Both the position numbers and the translations under genes were made by a program. This document shows positions 46,265 through 54,662 of a stretch of DNA of 64,000 bases, in pieces (position 1 is the first letter of the stretch; every line of letters starts with the position of its first letter). Source of the stretch: Phyllobacteriaceae bacterium (GTDB lineage: Bacteria; Pseudomonadota; Alphaproteobacteria; Rhizobiales; Rhizobiaceae); NCBI GenBank assembly GCA_016711085.1, contig JADJTR010000005.1, positions 230,727-294,726 of the forward strand. The letters are read 5' to 3'. Below the pieces are notes generated by a model. That model saw nothing but the letters and a program-made list of their open reading frames with translations, ran no database searches and was not told the DNA's origin.

Positions 46265-46310
46265 GCCGGAGAGGGGTCGCCCGAAGCCGACGGGTTGGGG
46301 AAAAGCCGCC

Positions 46311-47273
46311 CTACTCCGCCAGATGGCAGGCCACCTCCGCCGCGCCGAGACGGCGCAAGCCCGGCCGCTCGCTCGCGCAGCGCGCGACCGCGATCGGGCA
46401 GCGCGGATGAAAGGCGCAGCCCGACGGCGGGTCGATGGGCGACGGCAATTCGCCGGTCAGCACGATGCGCTCCTTTTTGCGCCGCGGGTCGGCCACTGGC
46501 GTCGCCGACAGCAGCGCGCGTGTGTAGGGGTGGCGAGGTCGGGCGAAGATTTCGTCGCGCGGGCCGGCCTCCACGGCGCGACCGAGATACATCACCATCA
46601 CCTCGTCGGCGACATGGCGCACCACGGAGAGATCGTGGGAAATGAACAGATAGGCAAGGCTCAACCGCTCTTGCAATTCGCCGATCAGGTTCAGCACCTG
46701 CGCCTGGATCGAGATGTCGAGCGCCGAGACCGGCTCGTCGAGCACGAGGATGTCGGGCGACAGCATCAGCGAGCGGGCAATCGCGATGCGCTGGCGCTGG
46801 CCGCCGGAAAACATGTGCGGGTAGCGCTCGCCGAATTCCGGACGCAGGCCGACCGCCTCCATCATCTCGGCGACGGCGTTGCGCCGCTCGTCCGCCCCGC
46901 CGCGATTGTTGACGATCAGCGGCTCCTCCAGCGCGTCGCGCACCCGCTGGCGCGGATTGAGCGAGCCATAGGGATTCTGGAAGACGATCTGCACCTTCGG
47001 CCGCAACACCGCCCGTTCGGCGGCGGTCGCCCTGGCGATATCGATGTCGTCGATGACCAGCGAGCCTTCCGACGGCGGCTCGATCATGGCGACGAGGCGG
47101 GCGAGCGTCGATTTCCCGCAGCCGGATTCGCCGACCACGGCGAGCGTCCTTTTGCGCCGCAGCGTGAACGAGGCGTCGGCGAGCGCGTTGACGGTCGCCA
47201 GTTCGCGGAATGCGCCCCTCGACACGGCATAGCGCCGCGCCAGGTTTTTCGCGGTGAGCACGATGTCGCTCAT
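46311..47273 (-). CDS. dppF: dipeptide ABC transporter ATP-binding protein
   Basis: In-frame tail of ORF 46311..48092 from [11 protein letters not shown] (47273). [25 protein letters not shown], and the oligopeptide C-terminal domain (HPYTRALL...CAFHPRCP). Confidence 0.85.
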   Translation of the reverse strand: MSDIVLTAKNLARRYAVSRGAFRELATVNALADASFTLRRKRTLAVVGESGCGKSTLARLVAMIEPPSEGSLVIDDIDIARATAAERAVLRPKVQIVFQNPYGSLNPRQRVRDALEEPLIVNNRGGADERRNAVAEMMEAVGLRPEFGERYPHMFSGGQRQRIAIARSLMLSPDILVLDEPVSALDISIQAQVLNLIGELQERLSLAYLFISHDLSVVRHVADEVMVMYLGRAVEAGPRDEIFARPRHPYTRALLSATPVADPRRKKERIVLTGELPSPIDPPSGCAFHPRCPIAVARCASERPGLRRLGAAEVACHLAE

Positions 47274-48265
47274 GCCGCCCTCCCCGCCATGCCCGGATGG
47301 CCGGAGGGCGCGCCATGAACGAGAGGATAGTGGCAGAGCGCCTTGCCTTGTTCCGCGCGCGGCGGCGGCGTGGCGCGGCACAAATCGGTGGCGAAGCCGC
47401 AGCGCGGCGAAAACAGGCATCCGGTCGGCCGGTCGAACTGGCCGGGCACCACGCCGGAGATCGACGGCAGCCGCTTCTGCGTGGCGCGGGCCGGCAGGGC
47501 CGAGAGCAGCGCCGCGGTGTAAGGGTGACGCGGATCGTCGAACAGGCCGAGAACCGGCTGTTCCTCCACCTTCTGGCCGGCGTATTGCACCGAAACGCGC
47601 TCGGCCGTCTCCGCCACCACGCCCATGTCGTGGGTGATCAGCACCAGGCCCATGCCGGTCTCCGACTGGATTTTCACCAGCAGGTCGAGGATCTGCGCCT
47701 GGATGGTGACGTCGAGCGCCGTCGTCGGCTCGTCGGCGATCAGCAGTTTCGGATTGCAGGCGAGCGCCATGGCGATCATGACGCGCTGGTTCATGCCGCC
47801 GGAGAGTTGATGCGGAAACGTGCCGAGCCGCTTTTCCGGCGCTGGTATGCCGACCAGCGACAGCAATTCGATGACGCGGGTGCGCCGCGCCGACGCGTCC
47901 ATGGCGAGATGCGTCTTCAGCGCCTCGTCGAGCTGGAAGCCGATGGTGAAGCACGGATTGAGGCTCGACATCGGCTCCTGGAAGATCATGGCGATGTCCT
48001 TGCCGGTGATCGAGCGGCGCTCGGCCGCGCCGATCCTCAGCATGTCGCGGCCGTCGAACGCCATGCGGTCGGCCGTCACTTTCGCCGTCCACGGCAGCAG
48101 CCCCATCAGCGCCAGCATGGCGACCGACTTGCCGGAGCCGGATTCGCCGACGATCGCCACCACCTCGCGCGCATCGACGGCGAGCGTGACGGAATCCACC
48201 GCCCGGAACATGCCGTTGGCGGTCTGGAACTCGACGGTGAGGTTTTCGATCTCGAGCAAGGCCAT
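47270..48265 (-). CDS. dppD: dipeptide ABC transporter ATP-binding protein
   Basis: 331-aa [16 protein letters not shown]...GESGSGKSV...[14 protein letters not shown]...[12 protein letters not shown] overlap with dppF. Confidence 0.85.
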
Positions 48266-48269
48266 GCTT

Positions 48270-49049
48270 TCATTTTCCCTTGCGAACGCCTATATTGCGC
48301 TTGGAACGGAGATTGCGGCCTTGCGTGGACCCATTCGCCCCATCGTCTGACAGGCTGTTCGGCGCCGAAGCGGTAGCGTCGGCTATGGCCTTGGCCGATT
48401 CCTCAAGCGCCGCGCGCGCGCCTCTTTCAACGCTCTCGATGCCCTGCCGGAAATCGATCCCCGCATCCGCGGCGTAGGATTCCAGCGCCTTGCGGGCGTT
48501 TTCGCCGCGTCGGCGAAGAACCCAGACCATGGCGATGAAATTCGCATTGTATTTGGCCTTCTCGGCGGCTGCTTGGCCGAGGAAAAGCGGATCGCGCATG
48601 TCGTGGATCATCAGGTTGGTCTGCTTGGCGGCCCGATAATAGGCAACGACATCGTGAATGATCTCGGACGGCAGGATCGACAGGTCGTCCACCAGGCTTT
48701 CGAACACGAAATCCGTTTCGTCCGGCGTGGCGAACGGGGTCGCCTGGCCAATGGCGTAAGCGATCTCCTCCGGGCGCAATTGATCGTCGGTGAGCACAAT
48801 CGCGCTGAGGATTTCCGCGTGGAGCGCTCGCACCATGTCGCCGACGCGTTCGTTGCGGGCTTTTTCTGCGCGCGCGATTTCGGCCCGGCGTTCTTCTCTT
48901 TCCCGGTTTCGCTCGCCCCTTTGGGTCAACACGTAGGTCAGGACGCCCGTAAATGTCGCCAGAACCGCCGCCACGATTGTCGCCGCGCCACCGATCAGCG
49001 CGTCGAACACGTCCGGATTGGCGAGGACGGATGACCACCGATTGTCCAT
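48270..49049 (-). CDS. hypothetical membrane-anchored protein embedded in the dpp operon
   Basis: 259-aa ORF. One N-terminal TM (ALIGGAATIVAAVLATFTGVLTYVL), a charged helix (RGERNREREERRAEIARAEKARNER), then an unassigned ~190-aa region. 7-nt gap after the dppC stop (containing GAGGGG) and 4-nt gap before the dppD ATG. Visibly lower G+C than its neighbours. Confidence 0.6.
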   Translation of the reverse strand: MDNRWSSVLANPDVFDALIGGAATIVAAVLATFTGVLTYVLTQRGERNREREERRAEIARAEKARNERVGDMVRALHAEILSAIVLTDDQLRPEEIAYAIGQATPFATPDETDFVFESLVDDLSILPSEIIHDVVAYYRAAKQTNLMIHDMRDPLFLGQAAAEKAKYNANFIAMVWVLRRRGENARKALESYAADAGIDFRQGIESVERGARAALEESAKAIADATASAPNSLSDDGANGSTQGRNLRSKRNIGVRKGK

Positions 49050-49056
49050 CCGCCCC

Positions 49057-49947
49057 TCAGCTCCGCTTCAGCTTCGGGTCGAGCGCGTCGCGCAGGCCGT
49101 CGCCCATCAGATTGATGGCGACGACGGTGATCAGGATGGCGAGGCCGGGAAACGCCATGACATGCGGGTGCGAGACGATCAGGTCGCGCGAATCGGCCAG
49201 CATCGAGCCCCATTCCGGCGTCGGCGGCTGCGCGCCGAGGCCGAGAAAGCCGAGGCCGGCGGCTTCGAGGATGGCGTCGGATACGCCGAGCGCCGCCTGC
49301 ACGATCAGCGGCGCCATGCAGTTCGGCAGCACGGTGCGCATCATCAGCCGGAACGGCCCGACGCCGGCGACTTTCGCCGCCGTCACGTAATCCTTCGACA
49401 GTTCCGCCAGTGCCGAGGCGCGCACGAGACGCACATAGCGCGGCAGATAGACGACGGTAACGGCGATGATGGTGTTGGTCAGGCTTGGCGACAGGATCGC
49501 CATGATCAGGATTGCCAGCACCAGGCTGGGAATCGACATGATCAAATCCATCACCCGCAGCACCGCCACGTCATAGAGGCCGCCGAACCACGCCGCCGAA
49601 AGTCCGAGCGCCACGCCGACGACGATGGAGACAAGCATCACCATCAGGCCGATGAACAGCGACACACGCGCGCCGTGGATCAGGCGCGAGAGCATGTCGC
49701 GGCCGAGCGCATCAGTGCCGAGCAGGAATTGCCAATCGCCCTTTTCCGTCCATGCCGGCGGCCGTTTGGTGAAGTCGCGGAACTGCTCGATCGGATCGTG
49801 CGGCGCGATGAAATCGGCGAAGATGGCGACCAGCGCGATGAAGACGACGATCGACAGGCCGATGACCGCGCCGCGATTTTCGCGAAATGCGCGCCAGAAC
49901 GCCAGCAATTCCGAGGGCGGCGGCGCCGCGACCGATTCAACCGCCAT
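49057..49947 (-). CDS. dppC: dipeptide ABC transporter permease
   Basis: 296-aa ORF with a DppC-like N-terminus (FWRAFRENRGAVIGL...) and an ABC type-1 TM domain. Overlaps the dppB end. Confidence 0.85.
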   Translation of the reverse strand: MAVESVAAPPPSELLAFWRAFRENRGAVIGLSIVVFIALVAIFADFIAPHDPIEQFRDFTKRPPAWTEKGDWQFLLGTDALGRDMLSRLIHGARVSLFIGLMVMLVSIVVGVALGLSAAWFGGLYDVAVLRVMDLIMSIPSLVLAILIMAILSPSLTNTIIAVTVVYLPRYVRLVRASALAELSKDYVTAAKVAGVGPFRLMMRTVLPNCMAPLIVQAALGVSDAILEAAGLGFLGLGAQPPTPEWGSMLADSRDLIVSHPHVMAFPGLAILITVVAINLMGDGLRDALDPKLKRS

Positions 49948-50950
49948 GGCAGATCCTCGGATTGATGAGGCCGTAGAGCAGGTCGACGGCGAGATTGACC
50001 AGAATGACCATGGTCGAGATAAGCATGATGCCGCCCTGCAGCGCCGGATAGTCGCGTCTGCCGATCGATTCGATCAGCCATTTGCCGACGCCCGGCCACG
50101 AAAAGATCGTCTCGGTCAGCACCGCGCCGGCAAGCAGGGTGCCGGTCTGCAGGCCGATGACGGTGACGACCGGAATGAGCGCGTTGCGCAGCGCATGCAC
50201 GCCGACCACCCGCGCCGCCGACAGTCCTTTGGCGCGCGCCGTGCGCACATAGTCCTCGCCGAGGATTTCCAGCATCGAGGACCGCGTCATGCGCGCGATG
50301 ACCGCGAGCGGGACGGTGCCGAGCACGATCATCGGCAGGATCAGATGACGCACGGCATCGAGGAAGGCCCCTTTTTGACCGGACAGCACGGAATCGATCA
50401 GCATGAAGCCGGTGACCGGCTGGAAGTAGTATTTGATGAGGTCGATGCGGCCCGAAACCGGCGTCAGCCCGAGCGTATTGGACATCACCAGGATGAGCAG
50501 CAGTCCCCACCAGAAGATCGGCATCGAATAGCCGGTGAGCGCCAACCCCATCAATGTCTGGTCGGCGACGCCGCCCCGCCGCGTCGCGGCATAGACGCCG
50601 GCGGGGATGCCGAGCGCGATGGCGAACGTCATGGCGCAGATGGTCAATTCGAGCGTGGCGGGAAAAAGCTTGATGAATTCGTCGAGGATTGGCGTTCGCG
50701 AAACGATCGATACGCCGAAATCGCCGTTCAGGATTCCCCACACATAGTCGAGAAACTGCTTGAGAACCGGTTGGTCGAGGCCCATTTCGTGGCGCAGCTG
50801 TTCCAGCCGTTCGGGCGTGATGCCGCGCTCCCCGCGCCGCACCTCGATCGGATCGCCCGGAACCAGGCGGATCATCAGGAAAGTGACGAGCATCAAGGCG
50901 AGAAAAGTCGGGAGCGTCAGCGCCAAGCGCTTGAGCAGGAACCGGAACAT
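49937..50950 (-). CDS. dppB: dipeptide ABC transporter permease
   Basis: 337-aa ORF. MFRFLLKRLALTLPTFLALMLVTFLMIRLVPGDP...YVRTARAKGL...RDYPALQGG reads nearly collinear with E. coli DppB. Confidence 0.9.
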   Translation of the reverse strand: MFRFLLKRLALTLPTFLALMLVTFLMIRLVPGDPIEVRRGERGITPERLEQLRHEMGLDQPVLKQFLDYVWGILNGDFGVSIVSRTPILDEFIKLFPATLELTICAMTFAIALGIPAGVYAATRRGGVADQTLMGLALTGYSMPIFWWGLLLILVMSNTLGLTPVSGRIDLIKYYFQPVTGFMLIDSVLSGQKGAFLDAVRHLILPMIVLGTVPLAVIARMTRSSMLEILGEDYVRTARAKGLSAARVVGVHALRNALIPVVTVIGLQTGTLLAGAVLTETIFSWPGVGKWLIESIGRRDYPALQGGIMLISTMVILVNLAVDLLYGLINPRICHGG

Positions 50951-51000: not shown

Positions 51001-52593
51001 TTATTCGGCCACGTCCACGTTCTGGAACTCATGAGCGCCGAACGGGCTGATCTTGTAGCCCGAGACCGATTTGCGCGTCGGTTCGAACACCGTCGAATGG
51101 GCGATGTTCAGCCACGCCACGCCATCATGGTGCAGCTTCTGCATCTCCTGATAGATCTTGGTGCGCTCCGCCATGTCGGTCGAAGAACGCGCCTTGAGCA
51201 TCAGCTCGTTGAATTTGGGATCGCACCATTTGGAGATGTTCTGGCCCGCCGGCTTTCCGTCCTTGTCGCAACCGGCAAGGAAGAAGAAATTATCCGGATC
51301 GCCATTGTCGCCCGTCCAGCCGAGGAGGCCGAGCTGGTGTTCGCCCGCCTGCAGGCGCTTGCGATACTCGCCCCACTCGAAGGATACGAGCGTCGCGGTT
51401 AGGCCAACCTTGGCCAGGTCCGACTGCATCATCTCGGCGATGCGCTTGGCGTTCGGGTTGTAGGGACGCTGGACCGGCATCCACCAGATATCGGTGGCGA
51501 GGCCTTCGGCGACCCCGGCCGCCTTCAGAATTTCCTTGGCCTTCTCGGGATTATACTCGTAGTCGACCGTCGCCTCGTCATAGGACCACATGGTCGGCGG
51601 GATCGGATTCTTGGCCTTCTGACCAGCGCCCTGATAGACCTCCTTCAGGATCGCGTCGCGGTCGATCGCCATGGCGATGGCCTGGCGCACTTCCGGCTTG
51701 TCGAAGGGAGGCTTCTGGGCGTTCATCGACAGATAGCCGATGTTGAGGCCGGCCTGGCTCATCAGATTGACGTCCGGATCCTTGCCCATCGCCTCCAGAT
51801 CCGCCGGGTTCGGCGCGATCATCACCTGGCACTCATTCGCCTTGAGCTTGGCATAACGCGCCGTCGGATCGGGCGTTATGGCGTAAATCAGGTCATCGAC
51901 TTTCGGCTTGCCCGCCCAGCCTTCAAAAGCCTTGTAGCGTATCACCGCGTCCTTCTGGTAGTCGACGAACTGGAAGGAACCGGTGCCGACCGGCATTTGG
52001 TCGAATTGCTCCGGCGTGCCCTTGTCCATCAGAAACTTGGCATACTCTGCCGAATGGATTGTGGCGAAATCCATCGCCAGATTGGCGATGATCGGCGCGT
52101 TCGGAGCCTTGAGTTTCATCACCACCGTCAGATCGTCGGTTTTGGTGATCGAGTCGAGCGAATCGGGCATCCCCATGTCATTGAAATAGTCGTAGGCGCC
52201 GCCGGAAACCTTGGCGTAGGGATGGTCAGCCTTCCACTGGCGCTCGAATGACCAGATCACGTCGTCGGCCGTCAGATCGCGCGACGGGGTGAAGCCGTTG
52301 ACTCCGGAATGGAATTTCACGCCGGCGCGCAGCTTGAAGGTGATGGTCAGTCCGTCTTCGGAAATCGTGAACGATTCGGCGAGAGCCGGTTTGGGCGTGG
52401 TGCTGCCCGGTTCGAACTGCACAAGCTTGTTGTAGACGGGGCGCGCGGCGTCGAGCGACGTTCCGGTCGTGTTCATCGACGGACTGAAGTTCTCCGGCGA
52501 ACCTTCCGAGCAGTATGCCAGTGACTTGGCGCTGGCGGCGCCGCTCAATGCCGTTGCGGCGAGCAGGGCGGCGGCGAACATCGTTTTCTTCAT
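51001..52593 (-). CDS. dppA: dipeptide/peptide ABC transporter substrate-binding protein (family 5)
   Basis: ORF 51001..52647, with the start at MKKTMFAAALLAATALSGAASA (52593, signal peptide). Family-5 SBP length and segments. Confidence 0.8.
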   Translation of the reverse strand: MKKTMFAAALLAATALSGAASAKSLAYCSEGSPENFSPSMNTTGTSLDAARPVYNKLVQFEPGSTTPKPALAESFTISEDGLTITFKLRAGVKFHSGVNGFTPSRDLTADDVIWSFERQWKADHPYAKVSGGAYDYFNDMGMPDSLDSITKTDDLTVVMKLKAPNAPIIANLAMDFATIHSAEYAKFLMDKGTPEQFDQMPVGTGSFQFVDYQKDAVIRYKAFEGWAGKPKVDDLIYAITPDPTARYAKLKANECQVMIAPNPADLEAMGKDPDVNLMSQAGLNIGYLSMNAQKPPFDKPEVRQAIAMAIDRDAILKEVYQGAGQKAKNPIPPTMWSYDEATVDYEYNPEKAKEILKAAGVAEGLATDIWWMPVQRPYNPNAKRIAEMMQSDLAKVGLTATLVSFEWGEYRKRLQAGEHQLGLLGWTGDNGDPDNFFFLAGCDKDGKPAGQNISKWCDPKFNELMLKARSSTDMAERTKIYQEMQKLHHDGVAWLNIAHSTVFEPTRKSVSGYKISPFGAHEFQNVDVAE

Positions 52594-52805
52594 GGTGGAA
52601 ACACTCCCTGAAAATGGCGGCCCGCTTCGTTTGGACCGTCTGGTCAAATCTAATCACCGATTCTCGCGCTTGGGAATGGGGGGCGAAAAAACTCATCGGC
52701 TTCCGTTCGGTCAGTGTTCGGAGCCAGTTGCGTCCTCGATGACGGACTCGTAGTCTTTGGTCACATTTCGCCAAAAAATGGCGACTGAACGGGCGGGAGG
52801 ATGCC

Positions 52806-54662
52806 ATGGCCAAGGAAACCACGAAAACACCGGCAAAAGGATCGACAGCGAAGGCGCCGGCCGCCAAGCCGGTGAAAGCTGCGACCAAGGTCGCGCCGTC
52901 CAAGGCGGCCGCGCCAGCCAAGTCCGCGAATGCGGCCCCGGCCGCGGCGCCGTCCAAAGCGCCGGCAAAGCCGGCTCCGGCCGCCCGCCCGACTGCCACT
53001 TCAAAGCCCTGGCTCGCCTCCTATCCCAAAGGAATGCCCGCCGATCTCCCCAAGCCGGAATTCGCCTCGATCGGCGACATGATGATCGCCGCCTGCCGAA
53101 AATATTCGAGCCGCACCGCCTTCACCATGATGGGGCACGGCATGAGTTTCGCCGAACTCGATCGTCACTCCGCGGCGCTTGCCGGCTATTTCCAGTCGCG
53201 CGGCATCGCCAAGGGCGCGCGCGTCGCGGTGATGATGCCGAATGTCCTGCAGTATCCGATCACCGTCATGGCGATCTTGCGCGCCGGTTATTCGGTGGTC
53301 AACGTCAACCCGCTCTACACGCCGCGCGAACTTGAACACCAATTGAAGGATTCCGGCGCCGAAGCCATCGTCATTCTTGAAAATTTCGCCACCACATTGC
53401 AGGCTGTTCTCGCCAAAACGGCGGTCAAGCATGTCGTCGTCGCCGCGATGGGCGACATGCTCGGCTTGAAGGGCCTGATCGTCAATCTCGTCGTTCGCCG
53501 CGTCAAGAAGATGGTGCCGGCTTGGTCATTGCCCGGCCATGTCGGATTCAAGGCGGCGCTCGGCGAAGGCGCGAAGCACGGCGCAAAAGACGTGAAGAGC
53601 GGCCCCGACGATGTCGCCTTCCTGCAGTATACCGGCGGCACCACCGGCGTGTCGAAAGGCGCAACGCTGCTCCATCGCAACATTCTTGCCAATGTCGCCC
53701 AGAACGCCCTGTGGATCGAGGAAGCCTATACCGTCAAGAAGCGGCCCGATATCCAGACCTTTGTTTGTTGCCTGCCGCTCTACCACATCTTCGCGTTGAC
53801 CGTGAACATGATGATGGGCATGCAGCAGGGGGCGAACAACATCCTCATCCCCAATCCGCGCGACATTCCCGGCTTCGTCGCCGAGTTGCAGAAATACAAG
53901 ATCCACATCTTCCCCGGCCTGAACACGCTGTTCAACGCGCTCCTCAACAATGACGACTTCCGCAAACTTGATTTCGCCGAACTGGTGCTGACGCTCGGCG
54001 GCGGCATGGCCGTTCAGCGTCCTGTGGCCGAGCGTTGGAAAGAAATCACCGGTTGCAACATCGCCGAGGGCTACGGTCTGTCGGAAACGTCGCCGGTCGC
54101 CACCGCCAATGTGTTTTCCTCGAATTATTTCACCGGCACCATTGGCTTGCCGGTCCCCGGCACAGAGATCGCCATTCGCGATGACGACGGCAATGATTTG
54201 GCGCTGGGCGAAGTCGGCGAAATCTGCATCCGCGGCCCGCAGGTCATGGCCGGTTATTGGAACCGGCCGGACGAGTCGGCCAAGGTTTTCGCGCCGGACG
54301 GCTATTTCAAATCCGGCGACATGGGTTTCATGGACGACAAGGGCTTCACCAAGATCGTCGACCGCAAGAAGGACATGATCCTCGTCTCCGGTTTCAACGT
54401 CTATCCGAACGAACTCGAGGAAGTCCTGGCCAAGCACCCGGGCGTAATGGAGGCTGCCGCCATCGGCGTGCCGGACGAAAAATCGGGCGAGGTGCCGAAG
54501 CTGTTCATCGTGCGCAAGGACCCGAATCTCACTACCGCCGATGTGATGGAATACTGCAAGCAGAACCTCACCGGCTACAAATGCCCGAAATATATCGAAT
54601 TCCGCAATGATTTGCCGAAATCGAACGTCGGCAAGATCCTGCGGCGCGAACTGCGCGGGTAG
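52806..54662 (+). CDS. fadD: long-chain-fatty-acid--CoA ligase with an Ala/Lys/Pro-rich N-terminal tail
   Basis: AMP-binding motif LQYTGGTTGVSKGA, plus GYGLSETSP and PKSNVGKILRREL. RBS GGGAGG lies before ATG 52806. The first ~65 residues are KAPAAKPVKAATKVAPSKAAAPAK-type low complexity, ahead of the conserved WLASYP start. Confidence 0.85.
   Translation: MAKETTKTPAKGSTAKAPAAKPVKAATKVAPSKAAAPAKSANAAPAAAPSKAPAKPAPAARPTATSKPWLASYPKGMPADLPKPEFASIGDMMIAACRKYSSRTAFTMMGHGMSFAELDRHSAALAGYFQSRGIAKGARVAVMMPNVLQYPITVMAILRAGYSVVNVNPLYTPRELEHQLKDSGAEAIVILENFATTLQAVLAKTAVKHVVVAAMGDMLGLKGLIVNLVVRRVKKMVPAWSLPGHVGFKAALGEGAKHGAKDVKSGPDDVAFLQYTGGTTGVSKGATLLHRNILANVAQNALWIEEAYTVKKRPDIQTFVCCLPLYHIFALTVNMMMGMQQGANNILIPNPRDIPGFVAELQKYKIHIFPGLNTLFNALLNNDDFRKLDFAELVLTLGGGMAVQRPVAERWKEITGCNIAEGYGLSETSPVATANVFSSNYFTGTIGLPVPGTEIAIRDDDGNDLALGEVGEICIRGPQVMAGYWNRPDESAKVFAPDGYFKSGDMGFMDDKGFTKIVDRKKDMILVSGFNVYPNELEEVLAKHPGVMEAAAIGVPDEKSGEVPKLFIVRKDPNLTTADVMEYCKQNLTGYKCPKYIEFRNDLPKSNVGKILRRELRG

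Follow-up and report, generated by a model that had tools for sequence, protein, structure and literature searches.

ORF X within a dpp operon

In a 64,000-nucleotide (nt) stretch of the genome of a Phyllobacteriaceae bacterium (contig JADJTR010000005.1, positions 230,727 to 294,726), referred to here as the window, an open reading frame (ORF) that we call ORF X, or simply X, lies on the minus strand at 48270 to 49049, between dppC and dppD of a dpp operon. It consists of 259 codons followed by a TGA stop and encodes a predicted bitopic membrane protein of an undescribed family. The dpp genes around it occupy the same strand in the order dppA (periplasmic dipeptide-binding protein; 51001 to 52593), dppB (permease; 49937 to 50950), dppC (permease; 49057 to 49947), dppD (ATPase; 47270 to 48265), and dppF (ATPase; 46311 to 47273). 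Pfam identified an SBP_bac_5 protein, two BPD_transp_1 permeases, of which DppC also carries OppC_N, and two ABC_tran plus oligo_HPY ATPases in a collinear arrangement, and the best NCBIfam model for each flanking gene is that of the corresponding Dpp subunit. Only DppF scores above a curated (subfamily) cutoff; DppA (best model DppA_dipep, 687 bits), DppB, DppC, and DppD score under their equivalog cutoffs. The operon is best read as encoding a Dpp-type importer, with the substrate assigned from gene families alone. Both the gene calls and the NCBIfam matches agree with the original prediction, made from the letters of the DNA, that the dppA-B-C-D-F order is nearly collinear with the Escherichia coli operon. 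For dppA, we chose the ATG at 52593, which gives an N-terminal signal peptide (MKKTMFAAALL); the listed ORF extends to a TTG at 52647.

The junctions on either side of X are tight. The dppC stop codon (TGA, 49057 to 49059) is followed by a 7-nt spacer, GGGGCGG, and then by the X start codon (ATG, 49047 to 49049); a Shine-Dalgarno-like GAGGGG at 49053 to 49058 overlaps the dppC stop, spacer and site together spanning 49050 to 49058. Downstream, the X stop codon (TGA, 48270 to 48272) is separated from the dppD start codon (ATG, 48263 to 48265) by 4 nt (AAGC), and the final codons of X, AAG GGA (48276 to 48281), form a Shine-Dalgarno-like AAGGGA for dppD. The dppD stop and the dppF start overlap in an ATGA. 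No promoter-like or terminator-like site was found on the operon strand within the dpp operon. Given the short gaps, the Shine-Dalgarno-like site on each side, and the lack of promoter-like or terminator-like sites, X appears to be tied to dpp expression and is likely made together with the transporter through translational coupling at both junctions, without a promoter of its own. Direct reading thus confirmed the two gaps and the GAGGGG described in the original prediction, and its picture of a gene that depends on operon transcription and translational coupling was upheld.

X also differs from its neighbors in composition. Its G+C content is 0.617, against 0.655 for dppC, 0.677 for dppD, and 0.685 for dppF (dppA, 0.602). 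The lower G+C content that had been noticed at the outset is therefore real, but G+C content at third codon positions (GC3) is the clearer signal, at 0.74 for X versus 0.81 to 0.89 across the five dpp genes.

X is a real and conserved gene. It was initially called an orphan, a description that did not survive homology searches: a word-index search returned 14 homologues, and HMMER over 1.84 billion cluster representatives returned 134 at an E value of ≤1e-3, 49 at ≤1e-10, and 11 at ≤1e-30. Family members are 190 to 260 residues long and share the conserved motifs LHAEI, PFATPDETDFVF, and ILPxxVIHxVVxYYRxAxQxN. The ratio of nonsynonymous to synonymous substitution rates (dN/dS, by the Nei-Gojobori method) was 0.05 to 0.14 in nine close homologue pairs, indicating strong purifying selection. 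No Pfam family matched X or any of 56 family members, and searches of NCBIfam and PHROGs and with a PDB sequence profile likewise produced no usable match for X. Assignments to DUF4381 (12.3 bits, against a cutoff of 27.2) and SepX-GlpR (14.1 bits, against a cutoff of 110) were rejected. A match to the PADLOC "1TM effector" (PDLC00666; E value of 1.3e-4, 20 bits) was also rejected; it covers only residues 19 to 59, that is, the transmembrane (TM) helix and the charged stretch after it, and no defense sensor or signal-generating partner for such an effector was found in the dpp operon.

Homologues of X and other cargoes of the dppC-dppD junction

The close homologues of X that could be located, in about 50 operons representing at least 18 Hyphomicrobiales genera, all lie at the dppC-dppD junction. 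Across a species scan (one genome per species), a sample of 400 genomes of the order, and metagenomic and NCBI contigs, every placeable homologue with an E value of <1e-38 sits in the order dppC, X, dppD. The species scan yielded 36 X loci, all alphaproteobacterial, in the Aestuariivirgaceae, Hyphomicrobiaceae, Xanthobacteraceae, Rhizobiaceae, and Parvibaculaceae and in Methylobrevis. When the six proteins of the window were mapped on these loci, the arrangement dppA-B-C-X-D-F was found throughout, with a single exception in the Parvibaculaceae, where metagenome-assembled genomes (MAGs) have dppABC-X followed by a methyltransferase gene and no dppDF within 6 kb (L004/L005, 2323 to 6768). In the order sample, 22 genomes had a match to X, and 18 of the 18 matches with an E value of <1e-21 occupy the junction; the four weak matches (about 1e-14 to 1e-17) all come from one family, and the two of these that were inspected are not in dpp operons, lying beside LysE, EamA, and ATP12 genes or beside NYN and APH genes. 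The slot position is kept down to about 25% identity to the window's X, while DppD remains about 70% identical, and a contig from JGI holds a slot-resident member that is just 24% identical. X is thus an old family, with close members at the same junction in some 50 operons, and not a recent one-off acquisition. Cultured carriers include Methylobrevis pamukkalensis PK2 and Ancylobacter mangrovi GSK1Z-4-2. In the operon of M. pamukkalensis (L003, 2921 to 4434), dppA and dppB are separated by an acetyltransferase gene, and in this record dppB is broken into two ORFs, of 256 and 87 residues.

More distant relatives occur in other contexts. In a class-level sample outside the order, 5 of 400 genomes had a match, and the single strong one is a three-TM version adjoining propionyl-CoA carboxylase genes rather than dpp genes. 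Distant one- or three-TM X-like proteins lie beside propionyl-CoA carboxylase subunit genes in two families (L063, 3641 to 4228; L122, 1303 to 2079), and this neighborhood appears to be a second recurring context of the X superfamily. Two further relatives (27 to 29% identity) are found in an island with integrase and PRiA4 genes and in the neighborhood of an MTase-Mrr gene and HicAB. At the former locus (L065, 4155 to 5627), two tandem X-like paralogues of 208 residues adjoin a phage-type integrase gene and a PRiA4_ORF3 gene; at the latter (L068), the distant member lies between the MTase-Mrr gene and HicAB. The X superfamily extends beyond dpp, and its close clade is confined to the dppC-dppD junction. 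A survey of whether homologues always lie inside dpp or opp operons, as suggested in the original prediction, therefore gave a divided answer, positive for close members and negative for distant ones. Frames of 500 to 614 residues that resembled fusions of X to a Dpp subunit were rejected as out-of-frame readings across dppC in high-GC DNA; X always ends before dppD.

We then compared operons with and without X. Within the order sample, a DppD orthologue (E value of ≤1e-130) was present in 108 genomes, 18 of which carry X. Forty X-less orthologous operons were inspected at the junction. In 33 of them, dppC and dppD abut (2 to 35 nt), and in another 2 they are separated by ORF-free gaps of 131 to 161 nt; 4 hold a signal-peptide-bearing YbjN-family gene, and 1 holds genes for a ParE toxin and an HTH_3 antitoxin on the operon strand (L116, 1005 to 1737; genome G126). 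In the window's own family, the junction is empty in 9 of 10 orthologous operons. The statement that canonical dpp operons have no gene at this position thus extends to relatives of the window, whose junction is usually empty and otherwise holds X or other cargoes. In one Rhizobiaceae genome (G410; L077, 2361 to 3180), the junction holds a gene for a 69-residue TOBE protein together with an ORF in the opposite orientation whose secreted product has a molybdopterin-oxidoreductase domain. YbjN-family (PF10722) genes recur at the junction of five operons in at least two other families: L085, L088, L113, and L115, with dppC-dppD gaps of 515 to 726 nt, and the Methylobrevis operon (L003, 5358 to 5957), which holds YbjN and X together. 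A second Dpp-specific cargo, this one periplasmic, may be represented by YbjN.

To place these cargoes on the history of the operon, we used a DppD tree of 97 operons, a set gathered largely through searches for X. The presence of X on this tree requires at least 17 changes, at least 6 of them forced by well-supported branches; by cargo, 52 of the 97 operons carry X, 5 carry YbjN, 1 carries the toxin-antitoxin pair, and 1 carries TOBE. Genomes G084 (with X) and G126 (with the toxin-antitoxin pair) are 95% identical in nucleotide sequence up to the dppC stop and from the dppD start onward, with nothing alignable between, a difference that we read as a clean cassette exchange. Collectively, these data suggest that one orthologous Hyphomicrobiales dpp operon has a slot whose contents are exchanged by recombination and that X is the most common of the several cargoes it can hold.

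Exchange is also apparent within X itself. A metagenomic contig (L001) aligns to the window over 8.7 kb with an overall identity of 96.5%, the diverged tract described here included, and with about 1 to 3 mismatches per 100 nt outside X. At 48390 to 48855 (minus strand), this otherwise approximately 98% identical alignment is interrupted by a tract with 130 mismatches in 466 nt (approximately 28% divergence); there are no indels within X. Computed over codons 63 to 235 (a fine scan placed the edges at approximately codons 65 and 220), the synonymous distance (dS) of the tract is 0.98 and its dN/dS is 0.19, while dS in the remainder of X is 0.06 to 0.09. The substitutions span all classes, and on this ground, together with the dS and dN/dS values, we rejected a diversity-generating retroelement or hypermutation as the cause. 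The tract is instead most consistent with a diverged, functional allele segment imported by homologous recombination. The window is probably the recipient, since its tract is more distant from a same-genus MAG (dS, 1.21) than is the tract of L001 (dS, 0.69).

Other pairs of operons show the same pattern. In L045 and L048, DppC is 100% and DppD 98% identical, and the p-distance between the X proteins is 0.46; in L039 and L049, which have sister DppD sequences on the tree, X differs with a dN of 0.94; and in L053 and L054, the p-distance is 0.06 for DppD and 0.21 for X. Mosaicism extends to other genes of the operon. Compared with the window, the same-genus MAG (L006) has a DppD that is 90% identical and an X that is 68% identical, but its DppABC proteins are only 56 to 66% identical; an Aestuariivirga MAG has a DppA that is 89% identical and an X that is 50% identical; and between L021 and L025, DppD is 94% but DppC 62% identical. 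The dpp operon is thus mosaic as a whole, its halves having different histories, and recombination is not unique to X. Mirror-tree distance correlations were approximately 0.4 for X-DppC, X-DppD, and DppC-DppD alike and, because the whole operon is mosaic, singled out no partner of X. The idea of a horizontally acquired passenger, put forward in the original prediction, is favored by the patchy presence, cassette swaps, mosaic alleles, and low GC3 of X, but strong purifying selection speaks against it.

Two features of the L001 alignment lie outside X. Similarity stops just past the dppF stop (window, 46305 to 46415; L001 position 8744), beyond which L001 has two unannotated genes and the window has an IS110 doublet and a TIR islet. 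At 52816 to 52900, 17 differences including a gap fall in the Ala/Lys/Pro-rich N-terminal tail of an acyl-CoA synthetase gene, which suggests repeat-length variation in that tail.

Predicted topology and fold of X

To characterize the X protein, we modeled it with AlphaFold2 (AF2). The full-length model has a predicted local distance difference test score (pLDDT) of 76.7. It begins with a short, acidic N-terminal tail, followed by a long helix (residues 12 to 91) that comprises the TM helix (residues ~17 to 41; 48927 to 49001) and an Arg/Glu-rich stalk (residues ~42 to 72; 48834 to 48926). The length of the stalk varies among homologues, the spacing from TM helix to motif being 14 to 81 residues. 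Next comes a helical-bundle domain (residues 60 to 232; 48354 to 48872) with the motifs LHAEI, PFATPDETDFVF, and ILPxxVIHxVVxYYR, and the protein ends in a disordered basic tail (residues ~231 to 259; 48273 to 48365), the last codons of which carry the AAGGGA for dppD. The domain alone, modeled from a 39-sequence alignment, reached a pLDDT of 92.5 and a predicted template modeling score (pTM) of 0.85. It is predicted to form an up-down bundle of long helices, of about 160 residues, with a conserved nonhelical segment that bears a PFATPDETDF motif. In longer relatives, the added length consists solely of N-terminal TM helices preceding the domain, and no soluble partner domain is present. The AF2 models and the Pfam and NCBIfam searches agree with the initial description of one N-terminal TM helix, a charged helix, and a region of ~190 residues without a recognized motif.

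The distribution of charge around the TM helix suggests an orientation. In 51 of 55 family members, Lys and Arg are more numerous in the 15 residues after the TM helix than before it (means of 4.2 versus 1.4). By the positive-inside rule, X is predicted to have its N terminus outside and its C terminus inside, so that the domain would face the cytoplasm, which is the side of DppDF.

Comparison of the X models to the PDB using Foldseek revealed only generic helical bundles (FAT, talin rod, and chemoreceptor ligand-binding domains), with best E values of 0.06 to 0.17; for the domain model, the best E value was 0.16, and template modeling scores to generic bundles were 0.35 to 0.45. A structural search of BFVD with the full-length model gave no match. 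The domain is thus confidently predicted to be a nonenzymatic helical bundle of an adaptor-like type with no solved relative. We considered a metal or catalytic site at H77, E79, and the DETD acids but rejected it; an enzyme active site is unlikely because distant members residing in the slot keep neither the histidine nor the DETD acids.

Possible roles of X at the transporter

How might X act? Tentatively, we favor a role as a dispensable accessory or modulatory subunit that serves Dpp specifically, acting on DppBCDF from the cytoplasmic side. With its short acidic N terminus outside, the single TM helix would pack against DppBC, and the stalk, of variable length, would place the up-down bundle next to the coupling helices and the DppDF ATPases, on the cytoplasmic side of the membrane. 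From this position, X would modulate transport; restraint or gating is the most plausible way. We infer the physical contact between X and Dpp, as well as any influence on transport. A function of X in concert with the transporter, or directed at it, is suggested by its strict fidelity to the slot over deep divergence, by strong purifying selection, by its predicted obligatory coexpression with DppBCDF, and by an anchor that would put a protein-binding type of bundle on the ATPase side. The retention of X with dppABC in the Parvibaculaceae MAG despite the absence of dppDF is in line with such a subunit, as is the dN/dS of 0.19 even across the diverged tract.

Several observations weigh against an accessory subunit. 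Close relatives lack X, which only 18 of the 108 orthologous operons carry and which is both present and absent inside one genus; the slot also houses toxin-antitoxin, YbjN, and TOBE genes; and operons that are otherwise nearly identical can differ greatly in their X allele. The rate of evolution of X is about double that of DppC and DppD (median p-distances of 0.62 versus 0.33 and 0.27), and the GC3 of X is below that of the rest of the operon. Some distant members, which lie outside dpp operons, adjoin integrase or restriction/HicAB genes. We found no Rosetta-stone fusion joining X with a Dpp subunit, and among 11 to 12 sister pairs with and without X, the presence of X showed no convincing covariation with DppC or DppD residues beyond a weak trend of V versus I/T at DppC position 128. 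Two other explanations stay alive because X is dispensable in relatives, fast evolving, allele swapped, and low in GC3, because a toxin-antitoxin pair can occupy its slot, and because some of its distant relatives are linked to mobile elements. Of the functions offered in the original prediction (transporter accessory or regulatory subunit, immunity or exclusion factor, and selfish or defense gene), these data narrow the choice but eliminate none.

X might be a gatekeeper or immunity factor that binds DppBC from the inside and shields the cell from exploiters of Dpp, such as entering phage DNA, a peptide toxin, or a bacteriocin. An arms race would then explain why the cytoplasmic domain of X is polymorphic and exchangeable. 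Precedents are HK97 gp15, which targets PtsG, and the four-helix-bundle immunity proteins that target Man-PTS. Further precedent comes from DicB, which blocks ManYZ-dependent phage entry (PMC6832061). The at least 17 gains or losses of X on the DppD tree would fit such a role, as would allele replacement in at least three near-identical operon pairs (window/L001, L045/L048, and L039/L049), the faster evolution and low GC3 of X compared with its neighbors, the toxin-antitoxin pair as an alternative cargo of the same slot, and the distant homologues in integrase and MTase-Mrr/HicAB islands. However, use of Dpp by a phage or toxin is not known from these bacteria, and X lies outside defense islands and prophages, with no match in PHROGs, BFVD, or viral contigs (IMG/VR). 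The PADLOC match is limited to the TM stretch, pairwise dN/dS values are low and give no indication of positive selection, and recombination is not confined to X, since DppC too has been exchanged between operons (L021/L025). We therefore regard protection of this kind as possible but doubtful. That the junction is an operon-internal, recombination-driven slot whose dominant cargo guards the Dpp permease on its cytoplasmic side against hijacking phages or toxins, with a specificity domain exchanged between strains by homologous recombination, so that X would form an immunity module embedded in the transporter, strikes us as unlikely. The same holds for X as a trapped passenger with a membrane-associated function unrelated to Dpp, a nonmobile gene whose only means of spread would be homologous recombination across its highly conserved flanks, the 3' end of dppC and the 5' end of dppD, and which would for that reason alone always be seen at this junction. 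Such a passenger would account for the unrelated YbjN, ParE/HTH, and TOBE plus molybdopterin-domain ORFs in the slot, for swaps that stop at the dppC stop and the dppD start, for the other contexts of the family outside the order, twice beside propionyl-CoA carboxylase genes, and for the lack of covariation with DppC or DppD. It fits poorly with long retention under strong purifying selection while expression is wholly tied to dpp regulation, with persistence in the slot across such deep divergence, and with X being by far the commonest cargo even if the tree set is biased toward it (52 operons versus 5, 1, and 1). Finally, X could have been a spurious ORF within an unusually long dppC-dppD spacer, as long chance ORFs do occur in high-GC DNA. 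This case, raised in the original prediction as one that would undo it, is excluded for practical purposes by conservation and selection: X has 134 homologous clusters, conserved motifs, a low dN/dS, and a high-confidence domain model, and X-less relatives have no such spacer.

If X is an accessory subunit, it would join a varied group of proteins. Small modulators that are encoded in transporter operons or target transporters include KdpF in kdpFABC, AcrZ-AcrB, SgrT-PtsG, MgtS/MgtR/MgtU, and LucB; the review describing them never mentions Dpp and reports none for Dpp/Opp importers (PMC10710835). Like KdpF, AcrZ, and SgrT, X is predicted to be membrane anchored, noncatalytic, and made with the transporter, and it is lineage restricted and would be dispensable for the core mechanism. 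Those proteins, however, are ~30 to 60 residues long and have no folded domain, whereas X family members are far longer and have the bundle; X is unrelated to them in sequence, and its binding to Dpp is putative. At 259 residues and with a folded domain, X is outside a class of small membrane proteins of ≤~60 residues. PhoU is encoded inside a transporter operon (pstSCAB-phoU), and EIIA-Glc acts on MalK. X resembles both in being an all-helical or small cytoplasmic protein, as predicted, on the ATPase side of an ABC importer. Unlike PhoU, it has no PhoU domain (PF01895, found in soluble proteins; neither X nor the 56 family members has a Pfam match) and carries a TM anchor. Its gene, which is found patchily and moves as a cassette, is located between those for the permeases and the ATPases and not at the end of the operon.

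X also shares features with receptor-blocking and superinfection-exclusion proteins such as DicB, acting on ManYZ (PMC6832061), SieA of P22 (PMC10461980), HK97 gp15, acting on PtsG, and T4 Imm, which are accessory, polymorphic, and act at the membrane, with an inner-membrane permease as the target. These proteins are encoded by phages or prophages, whereas X lies inside a chromosomal nutrient operon, with dpp genes as its neighbors, and has no phage homologue; a phage origin was rejected because no relative was found in viral contigs. Integration hotspots flanked by core genes are known chromosomal sites of horizontal gene transfer of the accessory genome. The slot is like them in holding unrelated cargoes, including a toxin-antitoxin pair, between conserved flanks, in its turnover by homologous recombination, and in its atypical composition. 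It is unlike them in lying inside an operon, between coupled cistrons of one machine, in usually holding a single gene and no mobility genes, and in having one dominant cargo family. By analogy, X would functionally be most like transporter accessory proteins or cytoplasmic ABC regulators, yet it departs from them in size, domain, anchor, and operon position.

To our knowledge, Dpp/Opp peptide ABC importers are five-component machines, and no dedicated extra subunit has been described for them. Our literature searches likewise turned up no paper that describes an accessory protein of Dpp or a gene located at the dppC-dppD junction. X is therefore only in part the known, conserved Dpp accessory protein that the original prediction had considered as a counterargument, being conserved in the clade but undescribed. 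Our analysis defines an unannotated protein family with a confidently modeled helical domain that matches no known structure. If X binds the transporter, it would be a regulatory or protective subunit of a new type in a major route of nutrient and antibiotic uptake; if it does not, conserved operon junctions would act as recombination "sockets" that spread unrelated genes.

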